A stretch of DNA of 32,000 bases from Flavobacteriaceae bacterium (GCA_965224465.1 OZ245049.1:1560001-1592000); one strand, 5' to 3'; shown: positions 925-24,842, counted from the first letter of the stretch. Notes: generated by a model not told the origin, from the sequence alone. Numbers and translations: made by a program.

Positions 925-937
925 TGATTTGTTCTAT

Positions 938-977
938 AAAAAAAATGCCTATCGAACCAAATCGATAGGCATTTTTT
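938..977. terminator. Bidirectional intrinsic terminator between convergent genes
   Basis: 11-bp perfect stem ATGCCTATCGA (945-955) / TCGATAGGCAT (962-972) with a 6-nt loop. An A-run lies on the left and a T-run on the right. Confidence 0.65.
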
Positions 978-1091
978 AATCCCACAAGTGGGTTTAATTC
1001 CCCGATGCTTGCATCGAAATAATTAAGGTTTTTTATTTTTCATGCCTCGTGGGCTTGCCCCAAGGTTATTGACTTATTTATTTTATATGTA

Positions 1092-2279: not shown

Positions 2280-2349
2280 ATTATTAATATCTTGTTAACA
2301 CTTACTTTTGTAGAATAATGTGCAAAAGTACTCTTTATTTTACAATTAG

Positions 2350-3420: not shown

Positions 3421-3430
3421 TTATTTGATT

Positions 3431-3814
3431 TTAAAAGTTCATTTTTAACTGCATAACTGTAGCAATAGATTGTGCTCTAGTTTTAGCAGCATGTGCGTTT
3501 TCTCCTTCAAAATTTGCATCTATACTAGCAAAAAAGTAGTCGAGCCACACAGTAAAATGTTTGGATTTAAATGGTTTTGTTTTATTGATTAATAAGTGAG
3601 GACGCATAGCGTTCCTAGCATAAGTACCAGAATAAAAAATAATATTGTCCCAAAAATCAACAAGTATTTGCAAGTGGTGTTCCAGTGCTTCTGGATCGGT
3701 AAATTCAACAAAAAAATGTTTTACATCATCATCTACCATTAATTTTTTATAAAAATCACTTACGATCAGATAAATATCTTCTCTATTTTGAATATCAGAC
3801 TTCATATTTCCCAT
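3431..3814 (-). CDS. Group III truncated hemoglobin-like globin
   Basis: 127 aa. The pattern FY.K...D..V..FF ... H...L..FW ... G.Y......PH ... F..WL..F ... RA..IA resembles Ctb-type truncated globins. The start could be Met1 or Met4. Confidence 0.6.
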   Translation of the reverse strand: MGNMKSDIQNREDIYLIVSDFYKKLMVDDDVKHFFVEFTDPEALEHHLQILVDFWDNIIFYSGTYARNAMRPHLLINKTKPFKSKHFTVWLDYFFASIDANFEGENAHAAKTRAQSIATVMQLKMNF

Positions 3815-9260: not shown

Positions 9261-10385
9261 CTGAATTCAAGTCACAAACGCAACTTTTAGTTAAATAATA
9301 ATTGTTCCATTACAAATATAGGGTTTTGATATGAAAACCTTTTCCTAGGCCTTCTATTTAATTTTCCTTCCACCTGTTTTATCATCTGCTTAGTTAATAT
9401 CGAAAAGTCACTTCCTTTAGGGAAATATTGCCGAATAAGCCCATTTAAATTTTCATTAGATCCTCTTTCCCATGAATGGTAAGGATGTGCAAAATAATAA
9501 TCGATTCCTAAAAATTCAGCTACTTTTTTATGTCCTGCAAACTCTTTTCCGTTATCAGCTGTTATAGTGTTTATATACGGTATCCAATCTTCTAAAAGCT
9601 CATTAATAGCAGCTGTTACAACAGAAGATTCTTTAGATGCTATTTTTTTCATCTTTAGCATCCCAGAAGCCCTGTCATTGATTGTAAGAATGGCTTGATG
9701 ATGATTTTTTCCAATTATTAAATCCACTTCTAAATCTCCAAAACGTTCTCTTTTCTCCACTATATCTGGTCGTTTTTCAATACTAATTCGATCTTTAATA
9801 ATACCACGTGAGTCCTTGAATGCCCCTCGTTTCCTGTACTTCCTTCCTTGTCTTCTTAAATGAGTATAGAGTGTGCCTTTATGCTTCTTATCTTGCCAGA
9901 TATGCTGATAAATACGTTCTACTGAAACAACTTCTTTTCCTTGCTTAGTAAGTATTCCAACCACTTGTTCTGGACTATAATCATCACGTAACAGCTTTTC
10001 AACCTCGCTTCTTATCTTCTCAGTAAACCTAATGTGCTTTCGCTTTTTCTTATGTCTATCCTTCCACTTTCTATGTGCTAATTCGTATTCATAGGAGCCG
10101 CTACGAGCATCGCAATTACGTTTGCATTCTCTACTTATAGTGCTTTTATGTTTCCCTATAGCCAAGGCTATTTTGGACTTAGAATACCCCTGTGATAACA
10201 TACAGGTAATTGTGTATCTTTGTTCTTTGGTTAAATGTGCCATACTACTTCTTTTTCAGAGACTTGAGGGCGTAAGGTAACTATTCCATCAAAACATGAA
10301 GGAGAGGTGACTCTCTTTCTGTTTTGAAAAATAAACCTTAGAGACTCTCAAATCTAAGAAGTTGCATTTACTACTTGAATTTAAG
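9261..10385 (-). mobile_element. IS30-family insertion sequence, apparently intact (~1.13 kb)
   Basis: Imperfect ~26-27-bp terminal inverted repeats: CTGAATTCAAGTCACAAACGCAACTT at 9261-9286, versus the reverse complement of 10359-10385, CTTAAATTCAAGTAGTAAATGCAACTT. They bracket one transposase ORF. Direct repeat TATG (or GTATG) lies at 9257-9260 and 10386-10389. Confidence 0.8.
9287..10243 (-). CDS. IS30 family transposase
   Basis: 318 aa. N-terminal HTH MAHLTKEQRYTI..MLSQGYSKSKIA.AIGKHKSTISRE.KRN is characteristic of IS30 transposases. The C-terminal DDE integrase core includes ADNGKEF and ERGSNENLNGLIRQYFPKG. Confidence 0.9.
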   Translation of the reverse strand: MAHLTKEQRYTITCMLSQGYSKSKIALAIGKHKSTISRECKRNCDARSGSYEYELAHRKWKDRHKKKRKHIRFTEKIRSEVEKLLRDDYSPEQVVGILTKQGKEVVSVERIYQHIWQDKKHKGTLYTHLRRQGRKYRKRGAFKDSRGIIKDRISIEKRPDIVEKRERFGDLEVDLIIGKNHHQAILTINDRASGMLKMKKIASKESSVVTAAINELLEDWIPYINTITADNGKEFAGHKKVAEFLGIDYYFAHPYHSWERGSNENLNGLIRQYFPKGSDFSILTKQMIKQVEGKLNRRPRKRFSYQNPIFVMEQLLFN

Positions 10386-10466
10386 TATGTTTAGTTTATG
10401 ACTTCATAAAAGTCTTGTTTTTACGCGTAATAATGTGGAGTTCCTAATAAATATGTGACTATTTTA

Positions 10467-11300
10467 CTAAGCCACTTTCTTAATTTCCTTTTTTAGTTTT
10501 ATTTCCATTTCAAGCGGTGATAAATACCCTAAACTTGAATGTAATCTTTTGATATTGTACCAAGAGATATATTCATTTATCGACTCGTGTAATTGCAGAT
10601 ATGACATGTACTTGAAACGATAGAGCCACTCATACTTTATGGATTTAAAAAAGCTCTCAGCAACAGCATTATCCCAACAATTACCTTTTCTACTCATGCT
10701 CTGTGTTATTTTCTGATTAAAATATAAAATAGCAGTCATTTTATTAGATGCGTATTGCACTCCTCTGTCTGAATGAAAGATAAACCCTGGATTAATAGCT
10801 CTTGTTCTTCTAGCCGCAATCCACGCTTTTACAATAGTGTTTTGGGTGGTCATGTCCTCACTTAAAGACCATCCTACCACTTTTCTGTCAGCTAAATCAA
10901 TTATCGTGGTTAAGTAATTCCAATCATCATTTACGCGTATATAGGTGATGTCTGACACCCATTTATCTCCTATTTTCAAACTGGTAAACTCTCTGTTTAA
11001 TATATTTTTAGCAATAGGATAATCGTGTTTAGAGTCTGTAGTTACCACAAAAGCCTTCTTCAGAACACTTCGCAGACCCATCTCTTTCATCAACAGCGCC
11101 ACGTAAGAACGGCAATAATACACTCCTTCTCGCTCCAATGCTTTTTGAATTCTATGACTCCCATAGATCTCTTTACTTTCGATAAAATGATAGGTAATCC
11201 TATCCATCAAGTCTACTTTAGCAGTATTCTGTACGCTGGAACCGTTATTGTTTACCCAGTGATAATATGCGTTTTTACTAACGCGCATGGATTTACACAT
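10467..11300 (-). CDS. IS3 family transposase OrfB (DDE integrase core), probably made as an OrfAB fusion by -1 frameshift
   Basis: The 277-aa ORF as tracked has the rve-type core (WVSDITYI ... HSDRGVQYAS ... NCWDNAVAESFF). Its frame is -1 relative to OrfA and stays open upstream of the first Met. The true N-terminus is likely supplied by frameshifting at 11381-11387. Confidence 0.85.
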   Translation of the reverse strand: MCKSMRVSKNAYYHWVNNNGSSVQNTAKVDLMDRITYHFIESKEIYGSHRIQKALEREGVYYCRSYVALLMKEMGLRSVLKKAFVVTTDSKHDYPIAKNILNREFTSLKIGDKWVSDITYIRVNDDWNYLTTIIDLADRKVVGWSLSEDMTTQNTIVKAWIAARRTRAINPGFIFHSDRGVQYASNKMTAILYFNQKITQSMSRKGNCWDNAVAESFFKSIKYEWLYRFKYMSYLQLHESINEYISWYNIKRLHSSLGYLSPLEMEIKLKKEIKKVA

Positions 11301-11347
11301 CTTTTCAACAGGGAAGGATACTCCATTATTAAAAATGAATTTATACC

Positions 11348-11632
11348 TTATCTGTCGCTCTTGGAAAAGATGCCTACCGCCTTTTTTAATATATCACGCT
11401 CCATAGTTACGTTACGAAGTTCCTTTTTTAACGCCTTTAGCTCCACTTCATCATTGGTTAACTCTTTCTTTTTAGAAAAGTCACCCGATTTAATCTCGTA
11501 TTCTCGCTTCCAGCGAGATATCATACTTACATCCAACTCGTAATCTGTACTAATCTGTTTTGATTTCATTCCGGACTTTAATAGTTCTACTATCATTACC
11601 TTGAACTCATTATCATGCTTTTTTCTTCCCAT
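11348..11632 (-). CDS. IS3 family transposase OrfA (HTH)
   Basis: 94 aa. MGRKKH..EFK..IVELLKSG.K..QIS.DYELD.SMISRWKREY plus a leucine-zipper-like C-terminus, typical of IS3/IS911 OrfA. Confidence 0.85.
   Translation of the reverse strand: MGRKKHDNEFKVMIVELLKSGMKSKQISTDYELDVSMISRWKREYEIKSGDFSKKKELTNDEVELKALKKELRNVTMERDILKKAVGIFSKSDR
11381..11387 (-). promoter_or_regulatory. Programmed -1 ribosomal frameshift heptamer A-AAA-AAG
   Basis: The minus strand reads ATT AAA AAA GGC in the OrfA frame, and the plus strand is CTTTTTT at 11381-11387. This is the canonical IS3-family slippery motif. The OrfB frame is exactly -1 by codon-phase arithmetic from the ORF coordinates. Confidence 0.6.
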
Positions 11633-13456: not shown

Positions 13457-14092
13457 TTAAAATTTATTATCTATATCAACATTCTTGAAAAAATCTGCGA
13501 TTACAAAAGGAATGTTATTTTTTCCAAAAAAAGAATTATACTTGACAAATGCTTTTACTCGTATTAAATAAAACATTCCATTCTCTTCGTAATAAGAGTC
13601 CATATCTTGAGATCGTTGCTCAAATTTATAATTAAAAGGAATAAAGGTTTTATTTATAATTGAACCTATTTTGGCTTCTGATTTAACAACCGTAAAAACA
13701 CAATCTCCTTTTTCTCGTTTGAACAAATCTATAATCTGTTCTAAAATATAATTATTCCTTATAGGGTTCGTAGGTTGTAATACGAGTAAAGCATCTGGAA
13801 ATGTAAAATGATTATTACTTAAATACATAAGAAAATGTTTAATAAATAAGGAACTTGAAGCTTTAGAAGAACAGTATTCCTCTGGTCTTATAATATATGG
13901 AACATCATTTTTCTTGCAAAATTCAACAATCACATTATCGTTAGTAGTGACAAAATATTCAGAAATATATTTAGATTTTTTAGCAAAATTAACAGAATGC
14001 ATAAATAAAGGTTTTCCTAAAAATAAAGCAAAATTTTTCCCAGGAAACCTGATAGAATTTTTACGCGCTGGAATGAGTGCTATTATTTTCAT
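13457..14092 (-). CDS. Acylneuraminate/CMP-sugar cytidylyltransferase family protein (NeuA/KdsB-like)
   Basis: 211 aa. The N-terminal IALIPARKNSIRFPGKN is the signature nucleotide-binding loop of the CTP_transf_3 family. Its start codon overlaps the upstream gene stop (ATGA, 14089-14092). Confidence 0.7.
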   Translation of the reverse strand: MKIIALIPARKNSIRFPGKNFALFLGKPLFMHSVNFAKKSKYISEYFVTTNDNVIVEFCKKNDVPYIIRPEEYCSSKASSSLFIKHFLMYLSNNHFTFPDALLVLQPTNPIRNNYILEQIIDLFKREKGDCVFTVVKSEAKIGSIINKTFIPFNYKFEQRSQDMDSYYEENGMFYLIRVKAFVKYNSFFGKNNIPFVIADFFKNVDIDNKF

Positions 14093-15516
14093 TGAACATT
14101 CGCTATTTTTAAGATTTCTGACACTGCATTATTGATAGCAAATTCAGCTGTAGTCATAAAATAATTAGACTTTTCAACGATTATATTCCCCTGTATTCTA
14201 GCCACTAAACTATTAGAATTTAGTAATTCTTTAATTTTACTCTTTGCTTCGTTTAAAGACCTAACCTCAAATCCTAATTCTAATTCCTGTAGATTAGGGT
14301 GATAATTAGACATGGATGTAGGGTTAAAAACAAATGGAATGGCATCATACACAATACTTTCCATTAAAGTGGATGAAAAAACAGCTACACTAACAATACT
14401 TCTAGACAAAACATTATCTAATGACACCGATTTTGATGGTACAAAAAACACATTTTTATACTTGTTTAATGTTTGTATTTTATCTGAAAAAAATTGATTT
14501 GCAGGATGCTCTCTAATTAATATTTCTAAATTCGGAAATGTAATAGCGCAGTAAGCTGCAAATGCAATCATTTGGTTTATTACAGGAATGGATAAAATGA
14601 AATAAGGCGCTTGAAAAAAGAAAGAAATGGCATTTTTATCTTGAATATTGTAATCGCTAATTTTAAATGGGTAGCCAGTACTTATGAATTTTGGTTTGTT
14701 ATTCACTTTTTTGAAAAGACAGGAAAATTCATTTCCCCATGTTAAAAAATAATCAAAAGGCATGTTCCTAAATCCTGTATGTAATATGCAAGGCCATCCA
14801 TGTTGCAAGCAAATTGTTTTTATTTTTAATTTAGTTGCTATAGATGCTAAGATGTCATAATCTACAATATTGCCGCCTTCTATGACAAGTATGCATGCTG
14901 GATTTAAAACCTTAATAATTAATTCAAAAGTGTTGTATAAATAGTAAAGGTTAGGGAATTTACTTTTTAAAAATTCGTTTGGATATAGTTCTATCTCTAG
15001 CGCAGCAAATTCTATAATTTCTATATTTTTAGGATATGCTGTTGTGTTGTTAATACTTGCACTAGTTAGTACTACTATTTCTTGGTTTATAGCGGATAGT
15101 ATTCCTAAAACTTGTTTTAAAAAACGCTCGTTATAGGCGTAAAAGAGGATTTTATTTTTATAGGGATGTAATACTTTTTCTAAAGATGCTATTATATTTG
15201 AGTTATCGTTTTTTGTATCACTTGAAACAAAATATTCCTTGTTTTCTAACTGTAAATTTTTAAAAGTCTCTCGGTAAAACTCTTCTTTAAAGAATGGATT
15301 TAAACGACCGTTTAAATAATTAGCATTAAACGAAGCTCTTAGTGCATCGTTGTGTAAAGGGATGTTAAAAATTCGTTTCCCTAGTAAAGACCTTATATTT
15401 TCATTGTTTAACATTAAGTAATTGTGGTCTTTATCCTCAATTACATTCAAGTATTCTTCAATTATTTGTTCTATATATTTTAAATATTGAACTCCGTAAT
15501 CTTTTTGGTCCATCAT
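14089..15516 (-). CDS. Hypothetical protein, possible GT-B-type CMP-sugar-dependent transferase (weak assignment)
   Basis: 475 aa. Only weak motif-level hints: a LQHGW block, an EHP (HP) motif followed by VFSST. These are reminiscent of bacterial sialyl-/Kdo-transferase and capsule-synthesis families. Context with the overlapping cytidylyltransferase gene supports this. No confident family recognition by eye. Confidence 0.3.
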   Translation of the reverse strand: MMDQKDYGVQYLKYIEQIIEEYLNVIEDKDHNYLMLNNENIRSLLGKRIFNIPLHNDALRASFNANYLNGRLNPFFKEEFYRETFKNLQLENKEYFVSSDTKNDNSNIIASLEKVLHPYKNKILFYAYNERFLKQVLGILSAINQEIVVLTSASINNTTAYPKNIEIIEFAALEIELYPNEFLKSKFPNLYYLYNTFELIIKVLNPACILVIEGGNIVDYDILASIATKLKIKTICLQHGWPCILHTGFRNMPFDYFLTWGNEFSCLFKKVNNKPKFISTGYPFKISDYNIQDKNAISFFFQAPYFILSIPVINQMIAFAAYCAITFPNLEILIREHPANQFFSDKIQTLNKYKNVFFVPSKSVSLDNVLSRSIVSVAVFSSTLMESIVYDAIPFVFNPTSMSNYHPNLQELELGFEVRSLNEAKSKIKELLNSNSLVARIQGNIIVEKSNYFMTTAEFAINNAVSEILKIANVQ

Positions 15517-15530
15517 GATTATAGTTTGAA

Positions 15531-16832
15531 TTAAGATCTATTAATTACATTTTTTAATTGGTAAAAAAAACGTTCCATCAATCGTAAATCTTCTGTAATA
15601 ATTTCTGCCATGCCTCTCATTTCTTGATTAAAAGAAATTTTTTTATTGTACGTAGTTATTAACGTAGTATCTAGATTAACATCTATATTGTAAAAGCCTT
15701 CCGCATCTGGAATAATTGAAATTCGATTGATAATACCAATGAGCATTCCGTACTCATTTGAGGGGTAGTTTTGTAATTTAATATGTACTTTTTGTCCAAT
15801 TTTAATTTTTCCAAAATTATACGATGCTGCTTTTATTTTCCCTATATAAGATCCAAATTCATTTGGTACAATGGAAAAAACAATGTCGCCAGATTTAATG
15901 GTTTGGGTTTTATTCCAAATATCCACAAATGCAACTTGACCAGAAATTGAAGATATTAAAGCATAGTTATATTCCCAGTCTTTAATCGCTTTTTTTAATT
16001 GGTAAAAGGATTGGATTACATTGTTAAACTGGGTTGTTTCTTCAAATCTTTTATTAATCCAAGTCCCATTTAAGCTTTTGTATAAATTACCCAAGCTTTC
16101 TTTTAATTGAGAAATCTGTGAATTCATACCTTGAGCATTTTTTTTTGCTTGCAGAAATCCTAACTGCTTTAGTTCATAGTCTTGTGCGGATATAATTCCT
16201 TTATCAAATAATAATTGTTGTCTTGAGAGCCCTTTTTCTTTTAGGGCTAGTTCTCTTTTGTTAATGTCTTTTTGAACTATTAAAATTTCTAGGCGTTGTT
16301 TGGTTTGGGAAATGGAAAGCCTGTTTATAGCTGACTCGTTATTAAATGGTTTTAGTTTTTTATTGAGTACGTATTTAGAGTAATTGTTTTCAAAAACCGC
16401 AAAACTTGTAGCAATATCTCCTAACATTAACACTGGTAATTCATGTAGTGGAAAATAAAAAGATGTAGCATTTAAAACAACTTTGTCTGTGAACTTTTTC
16501 AGTAGCAATACGTCTTTGTATTTTGCCGAGTTTTTTACAACTGCCAATAAAGTGTGTTCTTCTACAAATTCGGCATCTTTCACCAACAATGCATCCATTT
16601 GACCATTGGAACGTGAAATTACTTTTTCGGGTGGTAAAGTGGTGGTAACTATTACTTCGCTCGAAATAATATCAGGATATTTTACAAACCACGATATAAA
16701 TATCAATAGCAATACAATTATAAATACCAAGGTCATTCCCCATCTTATCATCCAATGTGGAATATAAGATAGTATTTCTTGTACTTCCTCGCTACGTACT
16801 GCAATATGTGTTGCTTTTTTATTTTTTTTCAT
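15531..16832 (-). CDS. HlyD-family membrane-fusion/adaptor protein for the peptide ABC exporter
   Basis: 433 aa. N-terminal cytoplasmic tail plus one TM (MTLVFIIVLLLIFISWFV). A long coiled-coil-like middle region (QTKQRLEILIVQKDINKRELALKEKGLSRQQ...) is followed by C-terminal beta-rich barrel-like sequence. It sits in the same operon as the C39-ABC gene. Confidence 0.8.
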   Translation of the reverse strand: MKKNKKATHIAVRSEEVQEILSYIPHWMIRWGMTLVFIIVLLLIFISWFVKYPDIISSEVIVTTTLPPEKVISRSNGQMDALLVKDAEFVEEHTLLAVVKNSAKYKDVLLLKKFTDKVVLNATSFYFPLHELPVLMLGDIATSFAVFENNYSKYVLNKKLKPFNNESAINRLSISQTKQRLEILIVQKDINKRELALKEKGLSRQQLLFDKGIISAQDYELKQLGFLQAKKNAQGMNSQISQLKESLGNLYKSLNGTWINKRFEETTQFNNVIQSFYQLKKAIKDWEYNYALISSISGQVAFVDIWNKTQTIKSGDIVFSIVPNEFGSYIGKIKAASYNFGKIKIGQKVHIKLQNYPSNEYGMLIGIINRISIIPDAEGFYNIDVNLDTTLITTYNKKISFNQEMRGMAEIITEDLRLMERFFYQLKNVINRS

Positions 16833-18405
16833 TATTTTTTGTATTTAAAATATCTTTAAAAGCAATACTATCCATAGGGTTTGGAGCGTTTAAAAGATAC
16901 ACGGCATTGTTAGCATCCAAAAGTGTCCATCTAGGTAATTGCACCCAGTTTTTCTTAAAATCTATGAACTTAAAATAATAATTAATTACATCTGACTTCT
17001 TACGATTACGAATACGGTAATGTTGAGTTTTATTTGTGTCCCCTTCTAATTCATGAATAAATTTCGACCATTTATTTTGTTCATCATCAAGCGAAATATA
17101 GATATATGAAGCTTTGTAATCATTTTCTAATGTCTTTCGGAATTGATGTAAATTAACAATATTGGAAGGTGTAATCTTATCATTATATGACCAAAAATGT
17201 ATTATTTTGTTATTGTTTTGATACGACATTAATAGCTCCTCAAATGTGATCTCCCTCCCTGTAATAGTAATTAATTTCTCTTGTAAAACGCTTTCTGGAA
17301 TCATATGCTCATTTATATTGATGTCTGAGGCTATATCTTCAATTTCATCTATATAAGATAGTGGAAGTTTTTTTGTTTTTAAATTCTTTATTTGAGTTAA
17401 AAAAACCTCTTTGTTATGTGCGTTATTCACAAAACCAATCGCATTAAATTCTTTTAGCAAATAAATTATGGCAAGATCTTGAACTATTCCTTTCAATTGA
17501 CTATTTATCATTTTCTTCTTTAGTAAAAACGAATCGTTATCATTCAAACTAGAGTCTAAACGACTAGAAACGTTTATGATATATGCTTTTAAACTACGCT
17601 TAAAATAATCATTATTAATAAGTTCTGGTCGATTAAAATGGTGTAAAGGAATGCTATTAATAAAACCCAATGTGTATCGTTTTTCTTCTCCTGAATTGGC
17701 ATTTATTAATTGGTTTTTCTTGAATGCTTTATTTATATATATGTTGTTTACCTGTTTACTGGAAGTGTTTACTTTGATTTCTCCTTTTCTTGGAACCATC
17801 ATATTAAACAAATATTCAAATTCAATTTCAGATTTCACTAGAATTACAAATTTTTCAGACACCTCAGAATGAATTTTTATATATTGTTTTAGAAATAGTA
17901 GTTGATCATCTTTAATTTTTTTGCATTCTTTTTCGTATCTTTTAAAGTCATTCCAAAAAGCATTATTTTTATACTTTAAAGATATTGAAGTATTCATTTT
18001 ATTGTAAAAATTATAATGAGCTTCGTTTTTCCCTGAAAATGTAACTTTACCTTGGTTAAATGCAATAGAAACGGTGTCACCAGGGCTAAGCATAATTCTT
18101 GTGTTGTGAAAATATTTTCCAAAAAAAACAATTTCCATTAGTTGTGGAGTCTTTACTGCCTTTAATCGTATAAAAAGCGTGTCTTTCTCAATATATTTTT
18201 CTTCTGCTGCATGCTTTTTCCCTTCAAAGTTTGCATAATCGGTAAGGTTAAAATAAGTAAGGTTACTCTTATCTTTTGAGCTTACTTTTAATAAGATGTT
18301 TTTTATTTTTGACTCTAGAACTATCACATCATTTTCTTTTTTTGAATTTTGTTTCTGTGCACAGGATATACATATAAAAACAAACAAACAAATAATTTTA
18401 TTCAT
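16819..18405 (-). CDS. Lipoprotein with a C-terminal thioredoxin-like fold lacking the CXXC motif (module 1 partner)
   Basis: 528 aa. Lipobox FICISC. The C-terminal ~110 aa align by eye to the TlpA domains of the two paralogous neighbours. FWSYNDKIT replaces FWASWCAPC, while the YIYISLD and cis-Pro LPRWTLLD blocks are retained. It overlaps the HlyD start by 14 nt. Confidence 0.6.
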   Translation of the reverse strand: MNKIICLFVFICISCAQKQNSKKENDVIVLESKIKNILLKVSSKDKSNLTYFNLTDYANFEGKKHAAEEKYIEKDTLFIRLKAVKTPQLMEIVFFGKYFHNTRIMLSPGDTVSIAFNQGKVTFSGKNEAHYNFYNKMNTSISLKYKNNAFWNDFKRYEKECKKIKDDQLLFLKQYIKIHSEVSEKFVILVKSEIEFEYLFNMMVPRKGEIKVNTSSKQVNNIYINKAFKKNQLINANSGEEKRYTLGFINSIPLHHFNRPELINNDYFKRSLKAYIINVSSRLDSSLNDNDSFLLKKKMINSQLKGIVQDLAIIYLLKEFNAIGFVNNAHNKEVFLTQIKNLKTKKLPLSYIDEIEDIASDININEHMIPESVLQEKLITITGREITFEELLMSYQNNNKIIHFWSYNDKITPSNIVNLHQFRKTLENDYKASYIYISLDDEQNKWSKFIHELEGDTNKTQHYRIRNRKKSDVINYYFKFIDFKKNWVQLPRWTLLDANNAVYLLNAPNPMDSIAFKDILNTKNNEKK

Positions 18406-18420
18406 AATAATATATTATTA

Positions 18421-18442
18421 AAGGGGACGTTAACGTCCCCTT
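18421..18442 (-). terminator. Strong hairpin immediately downstream of precursor 1 (attenuator/terminator candidate)
   Basis: Perfect 22-nt palindrome AAGGGGACGTTAACGTCCCCTT, 14 nt after the precursor stop codon and 15 nt before the next start codon. Confidence 0.6.
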
Positions 18443-18455
18443 AATTAATTAATTT

Positions 18456-18683
18456 TTAACAATCCTTTCCTGTACAAATAGCCCATCCACTATAGCCTCC
18501 TTGATTATAACATGCATGCTCTACAGTGGCATCATCTGCATTAGGGGCATTATCTATCCATACACCCGAATTACACTTAATACTCCATTTGTTCACATCG
18601 TCTCCACTACCTCCATTAATACTTCGTTGTTGTTCCTTACTTAATACTTTGGCACCTTCTAAATTTAATTTTAATTTTTTCAT
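18456..18683 (-). CDS. Double-glycine-leader peptide precursor 1 (bacteriocin-like, 4-Cys core)
   Basis: 75 aa. Leader MKKLKLNLEGAKVLSKEQQRSINGG ends in the GG cleavage motif. The 50-aa core is SGDDVNKWSIKCNSGVWIDNAPNADDATVEHACYNQGGYSGWAICTGKDC. The leader is shared with two other loci in the cluster. Confidence 0.8.
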   Translation of the reverse strand: MKKLKLNLEGAKVLSKEQQRSINGGSGDDVNKWSIKCNSGVWIDNAPNADDATVEHACYNQGGYSGWAICTGKDC

Positions 18684-18765
18684 TATAAAAATATTTTAAT
18701 TATTATGTTGCCTTGAACATTTAAAGACACTCAAGGTGTGTGTCTATTCCTCGCGAGAGAATATT
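18684..18765 (-). promoter_or_regulatory. Conserved 82-nt element upstream of a precursor gene (copy A)
   Basis: Identical to 20950-21031 and ~85 percent identical to 24761-24842, with the same length. It contains the palindrome TATTC-CTCGCGAG-A-GAATA (18745-18763). It also has the hairpin AGACAC(18725-30)/GTGTCT(18740-45) and a competing CCTTGA(18711-16)/TCAAGG(18731-36) pairing. Confidence 0.5.
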
Positions 18766-19078
18766 TTAATTTCCGAGCTCTAATTGATTTTCAACCAACT
18801 TAAAGTAGGATCCTTTTAAGGATATCAGTTCCTTGTGTGTTCCTTTTTCTACAATTCTCCCCTTATCAAGTACTACTATTTGGTCTGCATTTTTAACAGT
18901 ACTCAGCCTATGTGCGATAATAATAGCTGTACGGTTTTTAAAAAAAGTGTTTAGTTTTTCCATTATTACTTTTTCGTTATTTGCATCAAGAGCAGAGGTA
19001 GCCTCGTCAAAAAACAATATTTGGGATTTTTATACACCGCTCTTGCAATGAGTAATCGCTGTTTTTGTCCAGTGCTTA
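18766..19078 (-). pseudogene. Truncated, frameshifted duplicate of the 3' end of the C39-ABC exporter gene
   Basis: Nucleotide-identical to 21032-21345 except for one missing A in the run at ~19016-19017, which shifts the frame. It begins inside the LSTGQ signature codons and lacks everything upstream. The tracked 83-aa ORF ([10 protein letters not shown]...ELGN) is its distal part. Confidence 0.85.
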
Positions 19079-20634
19079 TCCAATAAGGCTCTTATCTCTT
19101 TTCCCTCTGGGCCAGGTGCATTTTTATGGATCAAATTACCTTGTTGGTCGTACAATAAATACCTTGGAATTGATTTCAGGTTTAATTGCTTATAAAAAAG
19201 TGCATTGGGATAATTTACAGCAAATAAATTGTTGCGGCTTCTAAGAAAGCCCTCCTCTTTGGAGGCTGTTTTCCATTTTTTAAAATCGCGGTCTATAGAT
19301 ATATAAACAAACGCAACCTCTTTATTGCTATAATCCTTATGTAGTTTTTTTGCTTCGGGAAATGCCGCTCTACAAGGTGCACACCAACTTGCCCAAAAAT
19401 CTACATATACCAGCTTACCTTTGTGTTTGTTTAACACATCTTTAAGTTGTGTTTTTTGTTTAAATGTGTCTATTAGATAAACTTTTTTGGTATCAGTAGT
19501 GTCTAAATAGTACGTAGTATTGATCAAATTAATATAAGTGCTATCGTTAATTGTTTTTTTGAATTTCAGAAAATATTTACTTGCATCTTGAACAGGAAAA
19601 TCTTTGATTATTTTTAGTAAATAGGTATACATTAAGTATTCTTTTACTTTTTTAGAAAAAAGGTTACTTGATTGAATTGAATCAAAAACGGCTTTCCAAT
19701 CATAATAATAACCACCACTTTTATTTAGATGAAATTCGTACTTAGTTGTCTTGTTTTCAAAATAATTAGGGAGGAATTGATAAGAAATAAAATCATGATA
19801 AAATTTATTTTCTAGTAAACTATCTCCTAGTTGTATGATACTTTTAATTGATGTTCTTTTGGGACGATGAGTTCTTTGTGAAATAGTAAATACATCTAGG
19901 TTAGACTTGAAAAACGTATCAAGTGGTAGTTCCGTCTGTTTTGCTAATCTGCTCCAGTTTATGAATGTTAATTTTTGTTTGTAGTAAGTATAGATGTCTT
20001 TAGATAATAAATCAGTAGCATATAATGAATCTAAGAAATGTTGCTGTGTCTTTAACTCCTCGAGTAATCTATTGGAGTATTCTACATTCAATTTTTTAAA
20101 GTAATTTTCCCACTTTGTTTTTGGTAGATCAAACGGTGGAAAGGGAACCCTTTTAAAACACCTCTCAAAACTAGTTAAATCATGCTTGTTATTGCCTTTT
20201 AAGGTTAATGATTCAAAGGAGTAATCATATTTTTTATGTGCTCTGTTTAAAATTGATATTATAGGTATACCCCTTATATATTTAACATAAACCGAATCTC
20301 CTGGTTTAAAAATGTAGGAAAGACCTTCTAATCCTATTTTTTCAAAATAAATTTCTTTTTTTTTGCCATTAAATGATATGTTAACAGTATCATTTAATGG
20401 TGCTCTTTGTGGATTAATATACTTACAAATCCCAGAGGAATCATAATATGACGCTATATAATTCAAATATTTTACCCCTCCAATATTTTGGCTATTCACC
20501 AATGATATATGTATTGGTTTTGGAATACAGTCAAATATTAAAGTTAGTTTTTTAGTTTTTAATTGTTCAATATTTACTTGCTTCTCTTTGTTGCAGCTAA
20601 TTATTAGAATAACAATTACTAGAAAATATCTCAT
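19030..20634 (-). CDS. TlpA-family thiol-disulfide oxidoreductase lipoprotein (module 2 partner), with a chimeric C-terminal tail
   Basis: 534 aa. Lipobox ILIISC. The C-terminal thioredoxin domain has VDFWASWCAPCRAAFP and the cis-Pro block SIPRYLLYD. The last 15 residues (HWTKTAITHCKSGV region) are translated from the duplicated ABC fragment in another frame (junction at 19078/19079). Confidence 0.75.
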   Translation of the reverse strand: MRYFLVIVILIISCNKEKQVNIEQLKTKKLTLIFDCIPKPIHISLVNSQNIGGVKYLNYIASYYDSSGICKYINPQRAPLNDTVNISFNGKKKEIYFEKIGLEGLSYIFKPGDSVYVKYIRGIPIISILNRAHKKYDYSFESLTLKGNNKHDLTSFERCFKRVPFPPFDLPKTKWENYFKKLNVEYSNRLLEELKTQQHFLDSLYATDLLSKDIYTYYKQKLTFINWSRLAKQTELPLDTFFKSNLDVFTISQRTHRPKRTSIKSIIQLGDSLLENKFYHDFISYQFLPNYFENKTTKYEFHLNKSGGYYYDWKAVFDSIQSSNLFSKKVKEYLMYTYLLKIIKDFPVQDASKYFLKFKKTINDSTYINLINTTYYLDTTDTKKVYLIDTFKQKTQLKDVLNKHKGKLVYVDFWASWCAPCRAAFPEAKKLHKDYSNKEVAFVYISIDRDFKKWKTASKEEGFLRSRNNLFAVNYPNALFYKQLNLKSIPRYLLYDQQGNLIHKNAPGPEGKEIRALLDKHWTKTAITHCKSGV

Positions 20635-20655
20635 AATGGTTTTTTGTTAGGTTAT

Positions 20656-20680
20656 AGGAAAGGAGTTTTCCTCCTTTCCT
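20656..20680 (-). terminator. Hairpin downstream of precursor 2
   Basis: 10-bp stem AGGAAAGGAG (20656-65) / CTCCTTTCCT (20671-80) with a 5-nt loop, 20 nt after the stop codon of the precursor-2 reading frame. Confidence 0.5.
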
Positions 20681-20700
20681 AAGTTTTGAATAATTGACTT

Positions 20701-20949
20701 TTAACAACCAAGATATTTTTTATGATCAGTATTTAGCCAGCTTACCTCACAGCAAGAATCGCAACAATAATTACCTCCTGTAACCGATGCTCCGTGAATT
20801 GCAGCATCACTACTAACACCAGACATACCACTAAATCCATTTCCACTGTCAAATGCACATGATCCAGCCGGCCAGCCACTACCTCCATTAATACTTCGTT
20901 GTTGTTCCTTACTTAATACTTTGGCACCTTCTAATTTTAATTTTTTTAT
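20701..20949 (-). CDS. Double-glycine-leader peptide precursor 2 (6-Cys core). ATA occupies the start position, so it is possibly a pseudogene or non-canonically initiated. Absent from the ORF track.
   Basis: My own translation of the minus strand is (ATA)KKLKLEGAKVLSKEQQRSINGG-SGWPAGSCAFDSGNGFSGMSGVSSDAAIHGASVTGGNYCCDSCCEVSWLNTDHKKYLGC, with stop TAA at 20701-20703. The leader DNA is identical to precursor 1 except for a 6-nt deletion (Asn-Leu) and ATG to ATA. An in-frame TAA lies at 20962-20964, with no ATG/GTG/TTG in between. Confidence 0.55.
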   Translation of the reverse strand: MKKLKLEGAKVLSKEQQRSINGGSGWPAGSCAFDSGNGFSGMSGVSSDAAIHGASVTGGNYCCDSCCEVSWLNTDHKKYLGC

Positions 20950-21345
20950 TATAAAAATATTTTAATTATTATGTTGCCTTGAACATTTAAAGACACTCAA
21001 GGTGTGTGTCTATTCCTCGCGAGAGAATATTTTAATTTCCGAGCTCTAATTGATTTTCAACCAACTTAAAGTAGGATCCTTTTAAGGATATCAGTTCCTT
21101 GTGTGTTCCTTTTTCTACAATTCTCCCCTTATCAAGTACTACTATTTGGTCTGCATTTTTAACAGTACTCAGCCTATGTGCGATAATAATAGCTGTACGG
21201 TTTTTAAAAAAAGTGTTTAGTTTTTCCATTATTACTTTTTCGTTATTTGCATCAAGAGCAGAGGTAGCCTCGTCAAAAAACAAATATTTGGGATTTTTAT
21301 ACACCGCTCTTGCAATGAGTAATCGCTGTTTTTGTCCAGTGCTTA
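20876..21345. repeat. Segmental duplication, copy B (within the intact ABC gene, intergenic element and precursor-2 leader)
   Basis: See copy A. Identity ends at 21345 (inside the LSTGQ codons) and at 20876 (just after the GG-SG codons). Confidence 0.9.
20950..21031 (-). promoter_or_regulatory. Conserved 82-nt element upstream of a precursor gene (copy B)
   Basis: Identical to 18684-18765. It lies between the ABC stop (21032) and the precursor-2 start position (20949). Confidence 0.5.
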
Positions 21346-23218
21346 GCCCAGCTCCTTCCATGCCTATTTTAGTGTTATAGCCTAGTGGTAGGTCATCAAT
21401 ATAATCAGAAATATTAGCAATGTCTATTGCATGATTTAATCGTTTCTGATCAATTATTTCTTCTCCAATGGCAATGTTGTTTGCAATGGTATTGTTAAAA
21501 ATATAGCCCTCTTGCATTACAACACCACAGTGTTGTCTCCATGTTTTAACGGCAATGTTTTTTAAATCGTGCTTTGCAACAAAAATGGTACCTTTATCCA
21601 ATTCATAAAAACGCATTAATAGTTTCATTAAGGTAGTTTTACCACTTCCACTTACTCCTACAATGGCGGTTATTTTATTGCTTGGTATATATAAATCCAA
21701 TTCTTTAATTACGGGTTGTAAACCTCCAATATATCGAAACGAAACTTTTTTTAATTCGATAGACGCATTAGCAGGGATCTCATTTATTTTTTGATCGCTT
21801 GTTTTCTCTTCATCATCCCTGTTGTGTATCTCTCCAAGTCTATCTAAGGATATTTTTGCATCTTGTAGTTCTCTCATAAATCCAATAAACTGAGTTACAG
21901 GTGCATTTAATTGTCCTACAATATAGCTTATAGCCATCATCATTCCTAAGGTAATATCACCATCAATTACTAATTTGGCAGACAATACGGTAATAAACAT
22001 GTTTTTTAGTTCGTTAATAAATGAAGACCCTACACTTTGGGTCTGTTCTAAAACAAGACTTTTAATTGATATTTTAAACAAACCAGCTTGTATATATTCC
22101 CAACCCCAACGCATTTGCCTTTCGGCATTGTGTAATTTAATTTCCTGCATACCTCCAATCAATTCAATTATTTTACTTTGATTGGCACTTGAGTATGAAA
22201 ACCGCTTATAATCCAATATTTTCCTGCGCTTAAAAAAGAAGAGTACCCAAGTAAAATACAAAACACTCCCCACTAAAAATACCGTGAAAATTTGCATGCT
22301 ATAATAGCTCAATACAAAACTAAACACAAAAAAATTAAACAGGGAAAAGACAACGTTTAAGGACGATGTGGTTAATATATTCTGTATCCTACGATGATCC
22401 TGTATACGTTGCATAAGATCACCTGTTAAGCGCACATCAAAAAAGGATATGGGTAAGCTCATTAATTTGATAAAAAAATCAGATATTAATGCAATACTTA
22501 TTCTAGTGCTCATATGGAGCATAATCCAACTTCTTATAATCTCAATAGATGCTTTTCCTAGGAATAGCAATAGCTGAGCTGCTAAAATTAGATAAATAAA
22601 ATGGATGTCTTGGTTTTGAATCCCTACGTCTACAATACTTTGTGTTAAAAAAGGCACCATAAGTTGTAATACACTGCCAGCCATTAAACCGATGGCTATT
22701 TGAACCAAAAACCGCTTGTATTTTAATACGTATTTAAACAAAAAGGAAAAACCAAAAGGAATCTCTTCTTCAAAGGTTTCCTGATAAAACTTAGGGGTAG
22801 GATCTACTATTAAAACGATGCCTTCCTGAGTATTTTCTGTTGCGTTATTTCCAATCCATTGACGTATAAAGTCTTGTTTATTGTATTCTAAAAGACCATT
22901 GGCAGGATCAGAAATGTACAGAACCTCTTTTTTTATTTTATAAAGGACTACATAATGATTTTTATTCCAATGCAAAATACAGGGTAAGGGGGCTTCCTGT
23001 AATTTAATAAACGATAATTGCGCTCCTAAACTTCTAAAACCAATAGATTCTACAGCTTCCCCCAAGCCCAATAAACTACTGCCTTTTCGGGTGGTTTCGC
23101 TTAGGGTCCGTAATTGTTGGGTGTTGATTGTTTTACCATAAAACTTGGTAATAATTTTGATGCAAGTAGGGCCGCAATCTTTAGACTCTGTTTGTTTATA
23201 ATTTGGGAATTTTTTCAA
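21032..23218 (-). CDS. Peptide-cleaving/export ABC transporter with an N-terminal C39 peptidase domain
   Basis: 728 aa. C39 domain with catalytic Cys in KDCGPTC and His in HWNKNHYVV. A six-helix ABC exporter membrane domain follows. The NBD has Walker A GVSGSGKTT, signature LSTGQKQR, Walker [12 protein letters not shown] and H-loop IIAHRLS. The start codon is TTG (23216-23218), directly preceded by an in-frame TAA. Confidence 0.9.
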   Translation of the reverse strand: MKKFPNYKQTESKDCGPTCIKIITKFYGKTINTQQLRTLSETTRKGSSLLGLGEAVESIGFRSLGAQLSFIKLQEAPLPCILHWNKNHYVVLYKIKKEVLYISDPANGLLEYNKQDFIRQWIGNNATENTQEGIVLIVDPTPKFYQETFEEEIPFGFSFLFKYVLKYKRFLVQIAIGLMAGSVLQLMVPFLTQSIVDVGIQNQDIHFIYLILAAQLLLFLGKASIEIIRSWIMLHMSTRISIALISDFFIKLMSLPISFFDVRLTGDLMQRIQDHRRIQNILTTSSLNVVFSLFNFFVFSFVLSYYSMQIFTVFLVGSVLYFTWVLFFFKRRKILDYKRFSYSSANQSKIIELIGGMQEIKLHNAERQMRWGWEYIQAGLFKISIKSLVLEQTQSVGSSFINELKNMFITVLSAKLVIDGDITLGMMMAISYIVGQLNAPVTQFIGFMRELQDAKISLDRLGEIHNRDDEEKTSDQKINEIPANASIELKKVSFRYIGGLQPVIKELDLYIPSNKITAIVGVSGSGKTTLMKLLMRFYELDKGTIFVAKHDLKNIAVKTWRQHCGVVMQEGYIFNNTIANNIAIGEEIIDQKRLNHAIDIANISDYIDDLPLGYNTKIGMEGAGLSTGQKQRLLIARAVYKNPKYLFFDEATSALDANNEKVIMEKLNTFFKNRTAIIIAHRLSTVKNADQIVVLDKGRIVEKGTHKELISLKGSYFKLVENQLELGN

Positions 23219-23300
23219 TTAGTTGAGTTTTTTAAATAACATTTATAGCTCAGGTAAAGCATAACCTCCACAATCTCTGCACACAATTTATAAGTTGAAT

Positions 23301-24410
23301 TTAAGTCTTCAATAAAATTGCTATTTCTTTTGCTAGTGCATCAAAGGACTTATCCTGTGGCTTTTTTAATTTTCCTTGTTTATTTATTAAATAACAGTCT
23401 GGAATACCTTGGATATCGTATTTTAATGCTACATCGTCATTTACTCCTTTTACATTGCTCATATGAATTTTAGGAACAGTATCTGCCTCTACCATTCGCT
23501 TCCAGTCTTGTCGGTTTTTGTCCATGGAATAATAAACCACCTCAAACTCATCTTTAGGGAATTTATGAACAAGTTTACTCACTACTTCTTTATTAAATGT
23601 CTTACAAGGAGCACACCACGAGGCACCGAATTGCAACAATATTACCTTTCCTTTGGAATCGGATAATTTAAGGGGGGCGCCTTGAATATTTTTTGCTTCA
23701 ATTTCTATAAATGTATCATAGTCTTTAAGGATATGGTAGGTAGCATATTTTTTAATAGCTTGTCCGTTTACTGATTGTGAAAACCTGGTATTAAGAAGCT
23801 TGTAAAAAGATTGAATGCTGTCTCTTGAGAGTTTTTTTTTATTGGATAATATAAAATCCAAAGCTAGCTTAGAATTGGCATTTTTATGTATGAAGTCGTC
23901 TAAAAATTGTCTTGATTTAGTCTTGTAAGCTTTTTTTACAATATTATGTTGCTTAGTATTGGCTATATTTTGGATTACTTCATTTTTATAGAAGGACGTA
24001 AGGTTATATATTAAATCGACCTTGGCTCCAATCACCTGTTCTGTTATAATATCATTGAGTATTGCTCCAAATAATTCTGCTTTTTTAAAGTTTTTGAAGT
24101 CTCCTTTTATTTTTATCTTTGAGTTATCAAGCCAGAATGAGATATAGGATTTTGAGTAAGTTTTCTGGAGGGTGTCATAAAAACCAAGAGTTACTTTTTT
24201 TGGTTCATTTAGGCTTCCTTTTAGTTTAAAATTAGTTTCTTTTGAATACGTTGAGTCAAGTGTTTTACCTTTATACATCAGTAAAACATTTAAATTTTCG
24301 GGCAAATTCATTATTGAGGCATCTATTACGTAGTTGTCTTTGTGTTCGTTTTTTGTACAGCTTATTAATTGAATTAATGCCATAAGTGCGAATGCTATTT
24401 TTTTTATCAT
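23301..24410 (-). CDS. TlpA-family thiol-disulfide oxidoreductase lipoprotein with a DUF4369-like N-domain (module 3 partner)
   Basis: 369 aa. Lipobox QLISC. The N-terminal beta-rich Y.IDA....P....V.L.Y.....DS pattern resembles DUF4369. The C-terminal thioredoxin domain has LLQFGASWCAPCKTF and the cis-Pro block GIPDCYLIN. Confidence 0.8.
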   Translation of the reverse strand: MIKKIAFALMALIQLISCTKNEHKDNYVIDASIMNLPENLNVLLMYKGKTLDSTYSKETNFKLKGSLNEPKKVTLGFYDTLQKTYSKSYISFWLDNSKIKIKGDFKNFKKAELFGAILNDIITEQVIGAKVDLIYNLTSFYKNEVIQNIANTKQHNIVKKAYKTKSRQFLDDFIHKNANSKLALDFILSNKKKLSRDSIQSFYKLLNTRFSQSVNGQAIKKYATYHILKDYDTFIEIEAKNIQGAPLKLSDSKGKVILLQFGASWCAPCKTFNKEVVSKLVHKFPKDEFEVVYYSMDKNRQDWKRMVEADTVPKIHMSNVKGVNDDVALKYDIQGIPDCYLINKQGKLKKPQDKSFDALAKEIAILLKT

Positions 24411-24532
24411 TTTTTTTTAATATCTTATGTTTTCCTAGTAATTATATTGGGAATTAACTAAAGGCTCCCCTCGAAATAGCCTATTTAAAAATCATAGAAT
24501 GAGGTTATCCCCCTTCTATAATTAAGTTACGG

Positions 24533-24760
24533 TTAGGAACAATTTCCAAAGCCTCCTCCATACCAAGGGAAATCGCAACCACCAGAGGCACAATCGTTGT
24601 CCCGAGAACAGGCACAGTCTTTACTTTCTTGACCATGTCCTTCGTCGTCTCGACCTTGATTGCAACCGGTGTTTGAGTCTCCACTACCTCCATTAATACT
24701 CCGTTGCTGCACCTTACTTAATACTTTAGCACCTTCTAAATTTAATTTTAATTTTTTCAT
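24533..24760 (-). CDS. Double-glycine-leader peptide precursor 3 (bacteriocin-like, 6-Cys core)
   Basis: 75 aa. Leader MKKLKLNLEGAKVLSKVQQRSINGG. The 50-aa core is SGDSNTGCNQGRDDEGHGQESKDCACSRDNDCASGGCDFPWYGGGFGNCS. Confidence 0.8.
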   Translation of the reverse strand: MKKLKLNLEGAKVLSKVQQRSINGGSGDSNTGCNQGRDDEGHGQESKDCACSRDNDCASGGCDFPWYGGGFGNCS

Positions 24761-24842
24761 TGTTAAAAATTTTATTAATTATATTTGCCTCGAACATTTA
24801 AAGACACTCAAGGTGTGTGTCTATTCTTCGCGAGAGAATATT
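24761..24842 (-). promoter_or_regulatory. Conserved 82-nt element upstream of a precursor gene (copy C, diverged)
   Basis: Same length and register as copies A and B. The distal 55 nt are nearly identical (two substitutions). The palindrome is retained as TATTCT-TCGCGA-G-AGAATA. This copy is not attached to any ABC fragment. Confidence 0.5.

Follow-up and report, generated by a model that had tools for sequence, protein, structure and literature searches.

Peptide toxins of Bacteroidetes are a recent and little-explored class. In Bacteroidales, the bacteroidetocin (class IIf) loci consist of genes for a membrane protein, a double-glycine (GG)-leader peptide with cysteines, a thiol oxidoreductase and a C39 peptidase-containing ATP-binding cassette (ABC) transporter, in this order, and the oxidoreductase is needed for full toxin activity and gives no immunity (Coyne et al., 2019, PMC6671954). 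Here we describe a locus within a 32,000-nucleotide (nt) stretch of DNA from a Flavobacteriaceae bacterium (GCA_965224465.1, OZ245049.1:1560001-1592000; hereafter, the window, with positions counted from its first nucleotide) in which the genes for three GG-leader precursors of Cys-rich peptides are each followed by a gene for a large lipoprotein with a thioredoxin-like domain. The best explanation of the gene content is a multi-peptide, bacteroidetocin-like bacteriocin locus of marine Flavobacteriaceae, with a predicted antibacterial activity. To our knowledge, the Bacteroidetes toxin loci studied so far contain solely one peptide and one thiol oxidoreductase, the role of the latter being unclear, whereas the window contains the peptide-oxidoreductase unit in three repeats, with different peptide families and different lipoprotein clades; in marine Flavobacteriia, this unit is a mobile cassette. 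The multiplication of the unit, the fidelity with which peptide families are matched to lipoprotein clades, the large N-terminal region of the lipoproteins, the recurrent redox-dead forms and the exchange of cassettes are new here. They open a concrete way of testing how the disulfides of small secreted peptides may be handled in a substrate-specific manner, or whether a new mechanism of immunity to such peptides exists.

Comparison of the locus with known systems

On the minus strand, the locus comprises, in this order, the genes for a VKOR-thioredoxin fusion, a cassette of a precursor and a lipoprotein, a C39-ABC exporter, further such cassettes and an HlyD-type adaptor. The three precursor-then-lipoprotein modules perceived in the first-pass annotation are all found at their positions, on the same strand. 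Precursor 3 (24533-24760; 75 amino acids (aa), with a 25-aa GG leader and a 50-aa core containing 6 Cys) is followed by a 369-aa lipoprotein (23301-24410), the precursor 2 open reading frame (ORF; 20701-20949; 6 Cys) by a 534-aa lipoprotein (19030-20634), and precursor 1 (18456-18683; 75 aa, GG leader, 4 Cys) by a 528-aa lipoprotein (16819-18405); the gaps between precursor and lipoprotein genes are 122, 66 and 50 nt, respectively. The 538-aa VKOR fusion, precursor 3, the 369-aa lipoprotein and the ABC exporter match the gene order of the bacteroidetocin loci, a comparison made with the published description rather than with sequences, and the gene arrangement of a class IIf locus is present, with a small GG-leader Cys peptide next to a C39-ABC gene, the peptide gene being immediately followed by that for an oxidoreductase and preceded by that for a multi-pass membrane protein. 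The differences extend beyond the repetition of the unit. The leaders in the window are 25 aa long compared to 15-16 aa in bacteroidetocins, and the cores are 50-59 aa compared to 42-48 aa; the membrane protein is a fusion of C39-like, VKOR and thioredoxin domains, and an HlyD adaptor is present; in two of the lipoproteins, the thioredoxin domain is preceded by a region of ~380 aa, and one lipoprotein is redox-dead.

The lipoproteins themselves share the fold, the WCxPC motif, the cis-Pro and the lipid anchor with TlpA/ResA/CcmG-type proteins and with the DUF4369-thioredoxin lipoproteins of Bacteroides (4yod, 4ka0, 2lja, 2lrn, 3fkf) but differ from these in being paired, gene by gene, with secreted peptides, and the 528-aa protein lacks both Cys. 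TlpA-type proteins constitute a periplasmic reductase/isomerase class, and the characterized TlpA/ResA/CcmG members reduce cytochrome c or substrates of Cu-center assembly. In Gram-positive bacteriocin operons, thioredoxin-fold accessory proteins, such as PedC (pediocin PA-1), BdbA and BdbB (sublancin) and SkfH, secure disulfides, and the combination of BdbB with BdbA parallels that of the VKOR fusion with a TlpA-like protein in the window. However, those systems have one accessory protein per operon, not per peptide family, and no large recognition region, and we know of no redox-dead paralogs described for them. A division of labor in which one system oxidizes and another isomerizes or reduces is likewise seen in the DsbA/DsbB and DsbC/DsbD pairs, which are general and not dedicated to neighboring peptides, and the use of Cys-less thioredoxin folds for substrate binding, a likeness to the 528-aa protein, in the b and b' domains of protein disulfide isomerase, also a general enzyme. 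Finally, NisI and SpaI are lipoproteins that bind the cognate lantibiotic on the outer face of the cytoplasmic membrane in a peptide-family-specific manner, but have an unrelated fold and no redox motif and belong to Gram-positive hosts. A literature search returned nothing on VKOR and C39 in connection with bacteriocins, nothing on DUF4369 with bacteriocins, and nothing relevant on double-glycine peptides of Flavobacteria with thioredoxin.

Peptide families and their lipoprotein partners

Related loci (denoted by L and a number) were collected in a genome scan anchored on the lipoprotein (25 loci from Flavobacteriaceae and related bacteria) and a metagenome scan anchored on the ABC exporter (80 loci, with exporters 67-96% identical), that is, 105 loci altogether. 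Their usual core consists of the VKOR fusion, precursors, the ABC exporter, further precursors and HlyD, with a homolog of the VKOR fusion present in most. Five families of peptides in these loci map one-to-one to lipoprotein clades. Family A, to which precursor 1 belongs (CNSGV...NQGG), is associated with the clade of the 528-aa protein in 6 of 6 pairs; family B, that of precursor 2 ([YW]CC[AD]SC), with the clade of the 534-aa protein in 9 of 9; and family C, that of precursor 3 (CxCxxDxDC), with the clade of the 369-aa protein in 3 of 3. Family D (CxYDCxxDG) goes with a subclade of ~480-aa proteins and family E (...LVSSxCxG) with a subclade of the 528 clade, in 2 of 2 pairs each. Altogether, the peptide family matches the lipoprotein clade in all 22 pairs (permutation p <= 1e-5, a value that ignores shared ancestry), and each peptide is inherited together with its lipoprotein, even at lipoprotein identities of only 25-35%. 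From the peptide side, the association is near-obligate, with a lipoprotein downstream of 23 of the 24 peptides of families A-E. The proposal, made from the window sequence, that the lipoproteins are peptide-specific partners is supported by this concordance. Loci with two to four cassettes recur, among them L070, which has the same three types in a row, L088, with three, and L026, L043, L028 and L034. A homology search with precursor 1 retrieved only 6 proteins.

The association is far less general when all precursors are considered. An improved leader hidden Markov model (HMM), extended to a second leader type (MKKQFLNLGKAL...), identified in the related loci 149 different precursors that have a GG leader and 3-8 Cys; 34 of these directly precede a thioredoxin lipoprotein and 115 (77%) do not. 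The median number of Cys is 6 for paired and unpaired precursors alike, whereas the paired cores are longer (median of 48.5 residues vs. 39). The notion that the lipoprotein is needed for disulfide formation in general can be rejected given that 77% of the equally Cys-rich precursors lack one. A strict rule of one lipoprotein per precursor can be rejected as well: L019 encodes three contiguous lipoproteins, one of each type, with a single precursor located ahead of the VKOR gene, and in L104 and L026 two precursors precede one lipoprotein.

Fold, anchoring and recurrent loss of the redox site

Pfam models recognize both the 369- and the 534-aa protein (Thioredoxin_8, with E-values of 5e-16 and 5e-17, respectively, Redoxin and AhpC-TSA). 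The former consists of a DUF4369 domain and a TlpA-like thioredoxin domain with an FGASWCAPC motif, and also yields partial matches to the ResA and TlpA models of NCBIfam; the latter combines a large N-terminal region with a TlpA-like domain (FWASWCAPC). Both are TlpA-like members of the fold family that retain CxxC and are predicted to catalyze thiol-disulfide exchange. For the 528-aa protein (FWSYNDKITPS, YIYISLD, LPRWTLLD), no Pfam match was obtained and NCBIfam produced a spurious hit to CowN alone. Nevertheless, this protein is a full-length homolog of ~530-aa WCxPC proteins that bear thioredoxin Pfam domains (E-values from 1e-65 to 1e-39 at 98% coverage), and its W-S-YND-K-ITPS segment aligns with W-G-YND-L-CHPC of a relative. 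The profile of its family detects TlpA-like structures of Bacteroides in the PDB (2lja, E = 5e-13). In the AlphaFold2 model (predicted local distance difference test (pLDDT) score 74.6, predicted template modeling (TM) score 0.70), a beta domain (~37-125) and a helical domain (~128-364) precede a C-terminal thioredoxin fold (~377-527), which Foldseek matches to the TlpA/ResA-type structures 4ka0, 2lja, 2lrn and 3fkf with TM scores of 0.65-0.74. The homolog alignment, the family profile and the structural model thus all agree with the original impression that the 528-aa protein ends in a thioredoxin fold devoid of Cys. The CxxC site of TlpA and ResA proteins is present in the 369- and 534-aa proteins (WCAPC), whereas the 528-aa protein, in which ITPS aligns with the CxPC of relatives, belongs to this group by its fold but not as a catalyst. 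The cis-Pro occupies a single alignment column (LPRW, IPRY and IPDC), in which P491 of the 528-aa protein is invariant in the three window proteins and at least 90% conserved across the homologs of the 528-aa protein. In profile-profile comparisons, the families of the 528- and 534-aa proteins are homologous over the full length (probability 100%, E = 1.4e-40), whereas the 369-aa family shares with them only the thioredoxin domain (E = 2.7e-17).

All three proteins contain lipoboxes (QLISC, LIISC and ICISC) after a hydrophobic signal region, and the lipid-modified Cys is invariant in the family alignments (C15, C14). The Bacteroidetes surface-export consensus is of the K-(D/E)2 type, and a weak resemblance to it had been suggested on the grounds that Lys and acidic residues follow the lipid-modified Cys (AQKQN, NKEKQ and TKNEH in the window proteins). 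The Lys enrichment is real, whereas the acidic part is not: positions +2 to +6 are Lys-rich across the family, and two adjacent acidic residues occur in only 2 of the 50 members, so that the resemblance does not hold.

The CxxC is present in 57 of the 59 lipoproteins encoded in the related loci and missing from the other two. An exhaustive search for representatives yielded 195 family clusters at E <= 1e-30, of which 124 are near-full-length; 116 of these keep CxxC and 8 do not. The redox chemistry therefore is normally under selection. The exceptions form at least four Cys-less lineages that are only 26-31% identical to one another, namely the window protein together with that of L001, P0027, P0052 and P0069. 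All four are intact and of lipoprotein length (~527-532 codons, in DNA of ~27-31% G+C) and preserve structural motifs, among them, in the window protein and the relative closest to it, the cis-Pro. The loss of CxxC is recurrent and independent. The gene upstream of P0052 (in L108) encodes a 5-Cys peptide of family A, whereas P0027 and P0069 are orphans among housekeeping genes; a homology search with the alignment of the Cys-less members recovered the same 10 proteins. The persistence of intact Cys-less forms in independent lineages, two of which still adjoin a peptide gene of the precursor-1 type, upholds the suggestion, originally drawn from the window protein alone, that binding matters and not only redox chemistry.

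Furthermore, the state of the active site follows the Cys content of the partner peptide. Among the eleven family-A pairs, the four in which the peptide has 6-8 Cys (L005, L011, L041, L012) all have the canonical WCxPC. Where the peptide has 3-5 Cys, the site is degenerate (LCHPC, LCTPC, RCDPC, RCEQC and NCERC in L106, L112, L016, L111 and L010), and it is lost altogether in the window and in L108, where the peptides have 4-5 Cys. In other words, a degenerate or lost site accompanies peptides with five or fewer Cys in 7 of 7 cases and WCxPC accompanies those with six or more in 4 of 4 (Fisher p ~0.003, with fewer independent events than the eleven pairs). The passing remark in the first-pass annotation that the CxxC-less lipoprotein has the partner with the fewest Cys turns out to reflect a general trend in precursor-1-type pairs. 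As read from motifs and Cys counts, this pattern shows that the chemistry of the lipoprotein is tied to the cysteines of the neighboring peptide and that the protein is kept after the chemistry is gone.

Orphan lipoproteins and decayed loci

A GG-leader ORF, an exporter gene or a VKOR gene is present within 8 kb in only 8 of the 24 lipoprotein-anchored loci. Free unlinking of the lipoproteins from precursor genes, named at the outset as an observation that would count against the pairing, accordingly is found in part, in the other 16 genome loci and in L107 and L109, next to the near-obligate linkage seen from the peptide side. The covariance model of the RNA element described below has no match in the orphan loci. 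The protein from L001, which is the closest relative of the 528-aa protein (48% identical) and also lacks the Cys, is encoded between sulfatase and SusC/D-like genes. In L002/L003, L107 and L109, members of the family are found in housekeeping contexts or in tandem arrays without bacteriocin genes. L009 is a remnant in which lipoproteins of the 528 and 534 types lie beside an HlyD fragment, with the ABC, VKOR and precursor genes gone. Damaged precursors beside intact lipoproteins were observed in L012 (7557-7896), L043 (5462-5560) and L010 (1568-1777), the types of damage being a frameshift, a stop codon in frame within the leader and the loss of the C-terminal Cys. Other related loci have completely lost the exporter or VKOR genes.

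Possible functions of the lipoproteins

The reading that we favor, tentatively and at somewhat less than even odds, is that the lipoproteins are peptide-family-specific, periplasmic thiol-disulfide accessory proteins or holdases that act alongside the VKOR-thioredoxin oxidase. Under this scenario, the exporter would cleave the leader and export the peptide, and the quinone-linked VKOR-thioredoxin fusion would introduce disulfides, which should be sufficient for most peptides. The lipoprotein, presumably located in the periplasm by its anchor and less abundant than the peptide, would serve certain longer peptide families by correcting or protecting the disulfide pattern: the large N-terminal beta-plus-helical region would bind the cognate core, and the CxPC domain would exchange thiols and disulfides, in a redox direction that we can only infer, so that the native pairing is attained or proofread. 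With the precursor-1 peptide, which has two disulfides, catalysis might have become dispensable, so that the 528-aa protein could persist as a binding-only holdase or escort. The CxxC is normally under selection, and the adjacent peptide is the obvious Cys-rich substrate. The match of peptide families to lipoprotein clades, the dependence of the active site on the Cys content of the partner, the TlpA/ResA-type fold and the VKOR-thioredoxin oxidase encoded in the locus speak for this reading, as does the only experimental precedent, the bacteroidetocin locus, in which the similarly placed oxidoreductase gene is required for full activity and confers no immunity (PMC6671954). The arrangement of the genes is compatible with this role. 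Between precursor 2 and the 534-aa gene there is an 11-bp hairpin (20655-20681, minus strand; -17.9 kcal/mol, z = -5.5), a candidate attenuator or stabilizer, and between precursor 1 and the 528-aa gene a GC-rich hairpin with an A/U-rich tail (18414-18449, minus strand; -16.4 kcal/mol, z = -3.3), whereas no comparably significant hairpin was detected after the stop codon of precursor 3. Such hairpins fit a high peptide-to-accessory expression ratio, and the layout is that of operons with a structural gene followed by an accessory gene. An effect of the lipoprotein on peptide yield would be expected, and a practical rule for heterologous production would be to co-express the cognate lipoprotein.

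Several observations weigh against an accessory role. The 115 unpaired precursors, with the same median of 6 Cys, imply that disulfide formation as such needs no lipoprotein, and L019 has three contiguous lipoproteins for a single precursor. Intact orphans without peptide or export genes (the 16 genome loci, L009, L001, L107 and L109) are not expected of a pure maturation factor. No CcdA or DsbD gene was found in the window. The VKOR fusion may already fill the role of the oxidase in Flavobacteriia, so that the bacteroidetocin precedent may not transfer, and the counterpart of the Bacteroides oxidoreductase might be the thioredoxin part of the VKOR fusion and not the lipoproteins. Finally, export in one step through the ABC and HlyD proteins would bypass the periplasm. 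The same orphans are what one would anticipate if each lipoprotein captured its cognate peptide in the periplasm, and reduced it where CxPC is present, with the orphans being immunity-only genes. We consider this explanation, the main rival, to be on the unlikely side, although it has much in its favor: the lipoprotein gene lies directly downstream of the bacteriocin gene, the classic position in toxin-immunity pairs; the linkage is asymmetric, with peptides rarely found without a lipoprotein (23 of 24 have one) and lipoproteins often found without a peptide; the decayed L009 keeps intact lipoproteins after the loss of the ABC, VKOR and precursor genes; the redox-dead lineages are intact, and 3 of these 5 are orphans among housekeeping genes; no other candidate for immunity is apparent among the genes of the locus; and the lantibiotic lipoprotein immunity proteins NisI and SpaI provide a functional precedent. 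If so, the lipoproteins would form a new class of family-specific immunity proteins of Gram-negative Bacteroidetes that intercept the peptide via the recognition region and act by reduction or by binding alone, and the orphans would record exposure to the peptides of neighbors; this broader proposition we regard as unlikely. Against immunity, the proteins known to confer it for class II bacteriocins are small and of membrane or helical type, which the thioredoxin-fold lipoproteins of 369-534 aa are not. Most precursors in the sister loci have no adjacent protective gene, and the strong conservation of CxPC calls for the extra assumption that reduction inactivates the peptide. Moreover, in the closest system studied, that of the bacteroidetocins, the oxidoreductase did not protect cells but was required for production (PMC6671954).

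The two remaining explanations leave more of the data unaccounted for. An escort or carrier that hands over the oxidized peptide, in stoichiometric amounts, from the inner-membrane exporter to an outer-membrane exit, or displays it at the surface, would explain the large non-catalytic N-terminal region, the retention of redox-dead members beside their peptide genes and the lack of a gene for an outer-membrane channel in the locus. Such a carrier is nevertheless improbable because, judging by the hairpins that follow precursor genes, the lipoprotein should be less abundant than the peptide, the acidic surface-export signal is found in only 2 of the 50 family members and most peptides of the same export system have no such partner; the orphans, too, are left unexplained. 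Alternatively, the lipoproteins could have no dedicated function and be ordinary members of the expanded TlpA-like repertoire of Bacteroidetes that travel with the cassettes, the 528-aa protein being a decaying relic. The housekeeping contexts and tandem arrays in which the family is found, the failure of every Pfam thioredoxin model to recognize the 528-aa protein and the decay present in the locus itself (precursor 2 lacks ATG; see below) fit with this possibility. It appears improbable, however, in view of the concordance of families and clades in 22 of 22 pairs across deep divergence, the intact ORFs and preserved motifs in at least four independent CxxC-less lineages and the dependence of the active-site state on the Cys count of the partner.

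Cassette exchange and the state of precursor 2

When the window is compared with its closest relative, L026, in which the ABC exporter is 96% identical, the cassette of precursor 1 and the 528-aa lipoprotein stands out as an insertion. The homology with L026 spans the ABC gene, precursor 2 and the 534-aa gene, ends at 19075 and resumes 8 nt before the ATG of HlyD. The inserted block opens with 315 nt of the ABC 3' end (left junction of the cassette, 18766-19081, minus strand), joined at a TAAG microhomology. The duplication encompasses ~480 nt (18600-19081 vs. 20872-21348, with the left junction at 19075-19081) and includes, besides the ABC 3' end, both the leader and the element located between the genes; over 300 nt (18666-18965, containing the ABC 3' end, the intergenic region and the start of the leader), the copy differs from the resident sequence (20932-21231) by a single mismatch. 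An 83-aa ORF that duplicates the C-terminus of the ABC protein is located within this segment (18766-19017, minus strand; the repeat extends to ~19081). Because the inserted block starts with the ABC 3' end, the last 14 aa of the 534-aa protein (HWTKTAITHCKSGV) are encoded out of frame by ABC-derived DNA. In L026, a different extra cassette, with two precursors and a 429-aa lipoprotein, is located behind a 5' ABC fragment, and ABC or HlyD fragments also border cassettes in L026, L032, L034, L037, L065 and L066. Thus, cassettes are gained and lost by recombination, the borders being conserved ABC, intergenic and leader sequences. A 16-bp inverted repeat inside the coding sequence of the 534-aa protein (20364-20402) also has an inverted match to L026. 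In L106, LanB-type lanthipeptide dehydratase genes (705-3783; Lant_dehydr_N, Lant_dehydr_C) are oriented divergently, adjoining the VKOR, precursor, lipoprotein, ABC and HlyD set.

In the case of precursor 2 (family B, NYCCDSCC), the ORF is found where it was first reported but an intact precursor gene is not. The codon at the start position is ATA (20949-20947), with no canonical start codon ahead of an internal Met, and the leader contains a 6-nt deletion (in the region of 20929-20934) that removes residues NL. The ATA sits exactly at the start position predicted by the upstream RNA element, and its altered base is the sole mismatch across the 300-nt repeat common to the precursor-1 copy. 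The ortholog in L026 is intact, with both ATG and NL. Given that the lone mismatch in the repeat is the start base and that the ortholog retains ATG and NL, precursor 2 probably represents either an allele silenced not long ago or an error in the sequence, and the ORF as it stands is probably poorly translated or untranslated.

A conserved candidate RNA element upstream of the precursor genes

Almost every GG-leader precursor gene is preceded, at a distance of ~27 nt, by a conserved 52-nt element. In the window, it occurs ahead of all three precursor start codons, on the minus strand: at 24788-24839 for precursor 3 (repeat family D3; 101 bits with model R1), at 20977-21028 for precursor 2 (91.8 bits) and at 18711-18762 for precursor 1 (97.4 bits). 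About 135 further sites were identified in loci L005-L108. The element consists of a hairpin, P0, and two interleaved stems, S1 (AGACAC/GTGTCT) and S2 (CCTTGA/TCAAGG), with loops of 3, 0 and 8 nt that suit an H-type pseudoknot. Across 88 distinct upstream regions, pairing is maintained in 93.8% of the cells compared to 31-52% with slid partners, changes on both sides occur in 15 of the 17 pairs, and 122 cells are compensatory, compared to 31 +/- 7 in shuffles (none of the 500 reaches 122). The occurrence of many U-G pairs on the sense strand, which would be C-A on the other strand, favors an RNA over a DNA operator. A covariance model of the element, built from P0 and S2, produces matches that end at the start of a GG-leader ORF in 3 of 3 cases in the window, 8 of 8 in the genome loci and 115 of 127 in the metagenome loci, and several of the remaining 12 metagenome matches precede further precursor-like ORFs. 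There is no match to Rfam 15 at E <= 1, and a scan for sigma-70 promoters gave 58 sites vs. 61 expected. Thus, the element is a candidate new cis-regulatory RNA; if confirmed, it would be not only a new regulatory motif but also a marker for precursor genes, which are often missed by annotation.

Other genes of the locus and its surroundings

The first gene of the locus encodes the 538-aa fusion protein (24866-26482, minus strand), which comprises a C39-like N-terminal domain, a VKOR membrane domain and a thioredoxin-like domain (Pfam: VKOR, 1.5e-14; Peptidase_C39, 3.6e-5; Thioredoxin, 1.2e-3) and contains the Cys motifs typical of VKOR-thioredoxin fusions, namely the loop Cys pair (FCAGASKKLSC), CPLC in the membrane and CGHC. 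Presumably, this protein serves as the disulfide oxidase dedicated to the locus. Its C39-like domain (the N-terminal ~130 residues) aligns with the exporter peptidase over the C-terminal half alone, with 24% identity, and is gapped at the NHY motif of the exporter, so that it may be a non-catalytic, leader-binding domain. The exporter itself is a 728-aa peptidase-C39 protein (peptidase-containing ABC transporter, PCAT; 21032-23218, minus strand), recognized by both Pfam and NCBIfam. The core of precursor 1 contains the family A signature (CNSGVWI...ACxNQGGYSG). The last gene encodes the 433-aa HlyD-type periplasmic adaptor (15531-16832, minus strand; NCBIfam TIGR01843, 4e-19). A search of the window yielded no additional precursor upstream of the 538-aa gene.

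The locus is flanked by housekeeping genes. About 4 kb beyond its end, at 9287-11632, there are an IS3-family transposase pair (HTH_Tnp_1 and rve) and an HTH_38 protein. Following HlyD, on the same strand, are genes for a 475-aa protein with no known function and a 211-aa cytidylyltransferase (13457-15516); both are found in the same position in L026 (79 and 72% identity, respectively) and not in the other loci.

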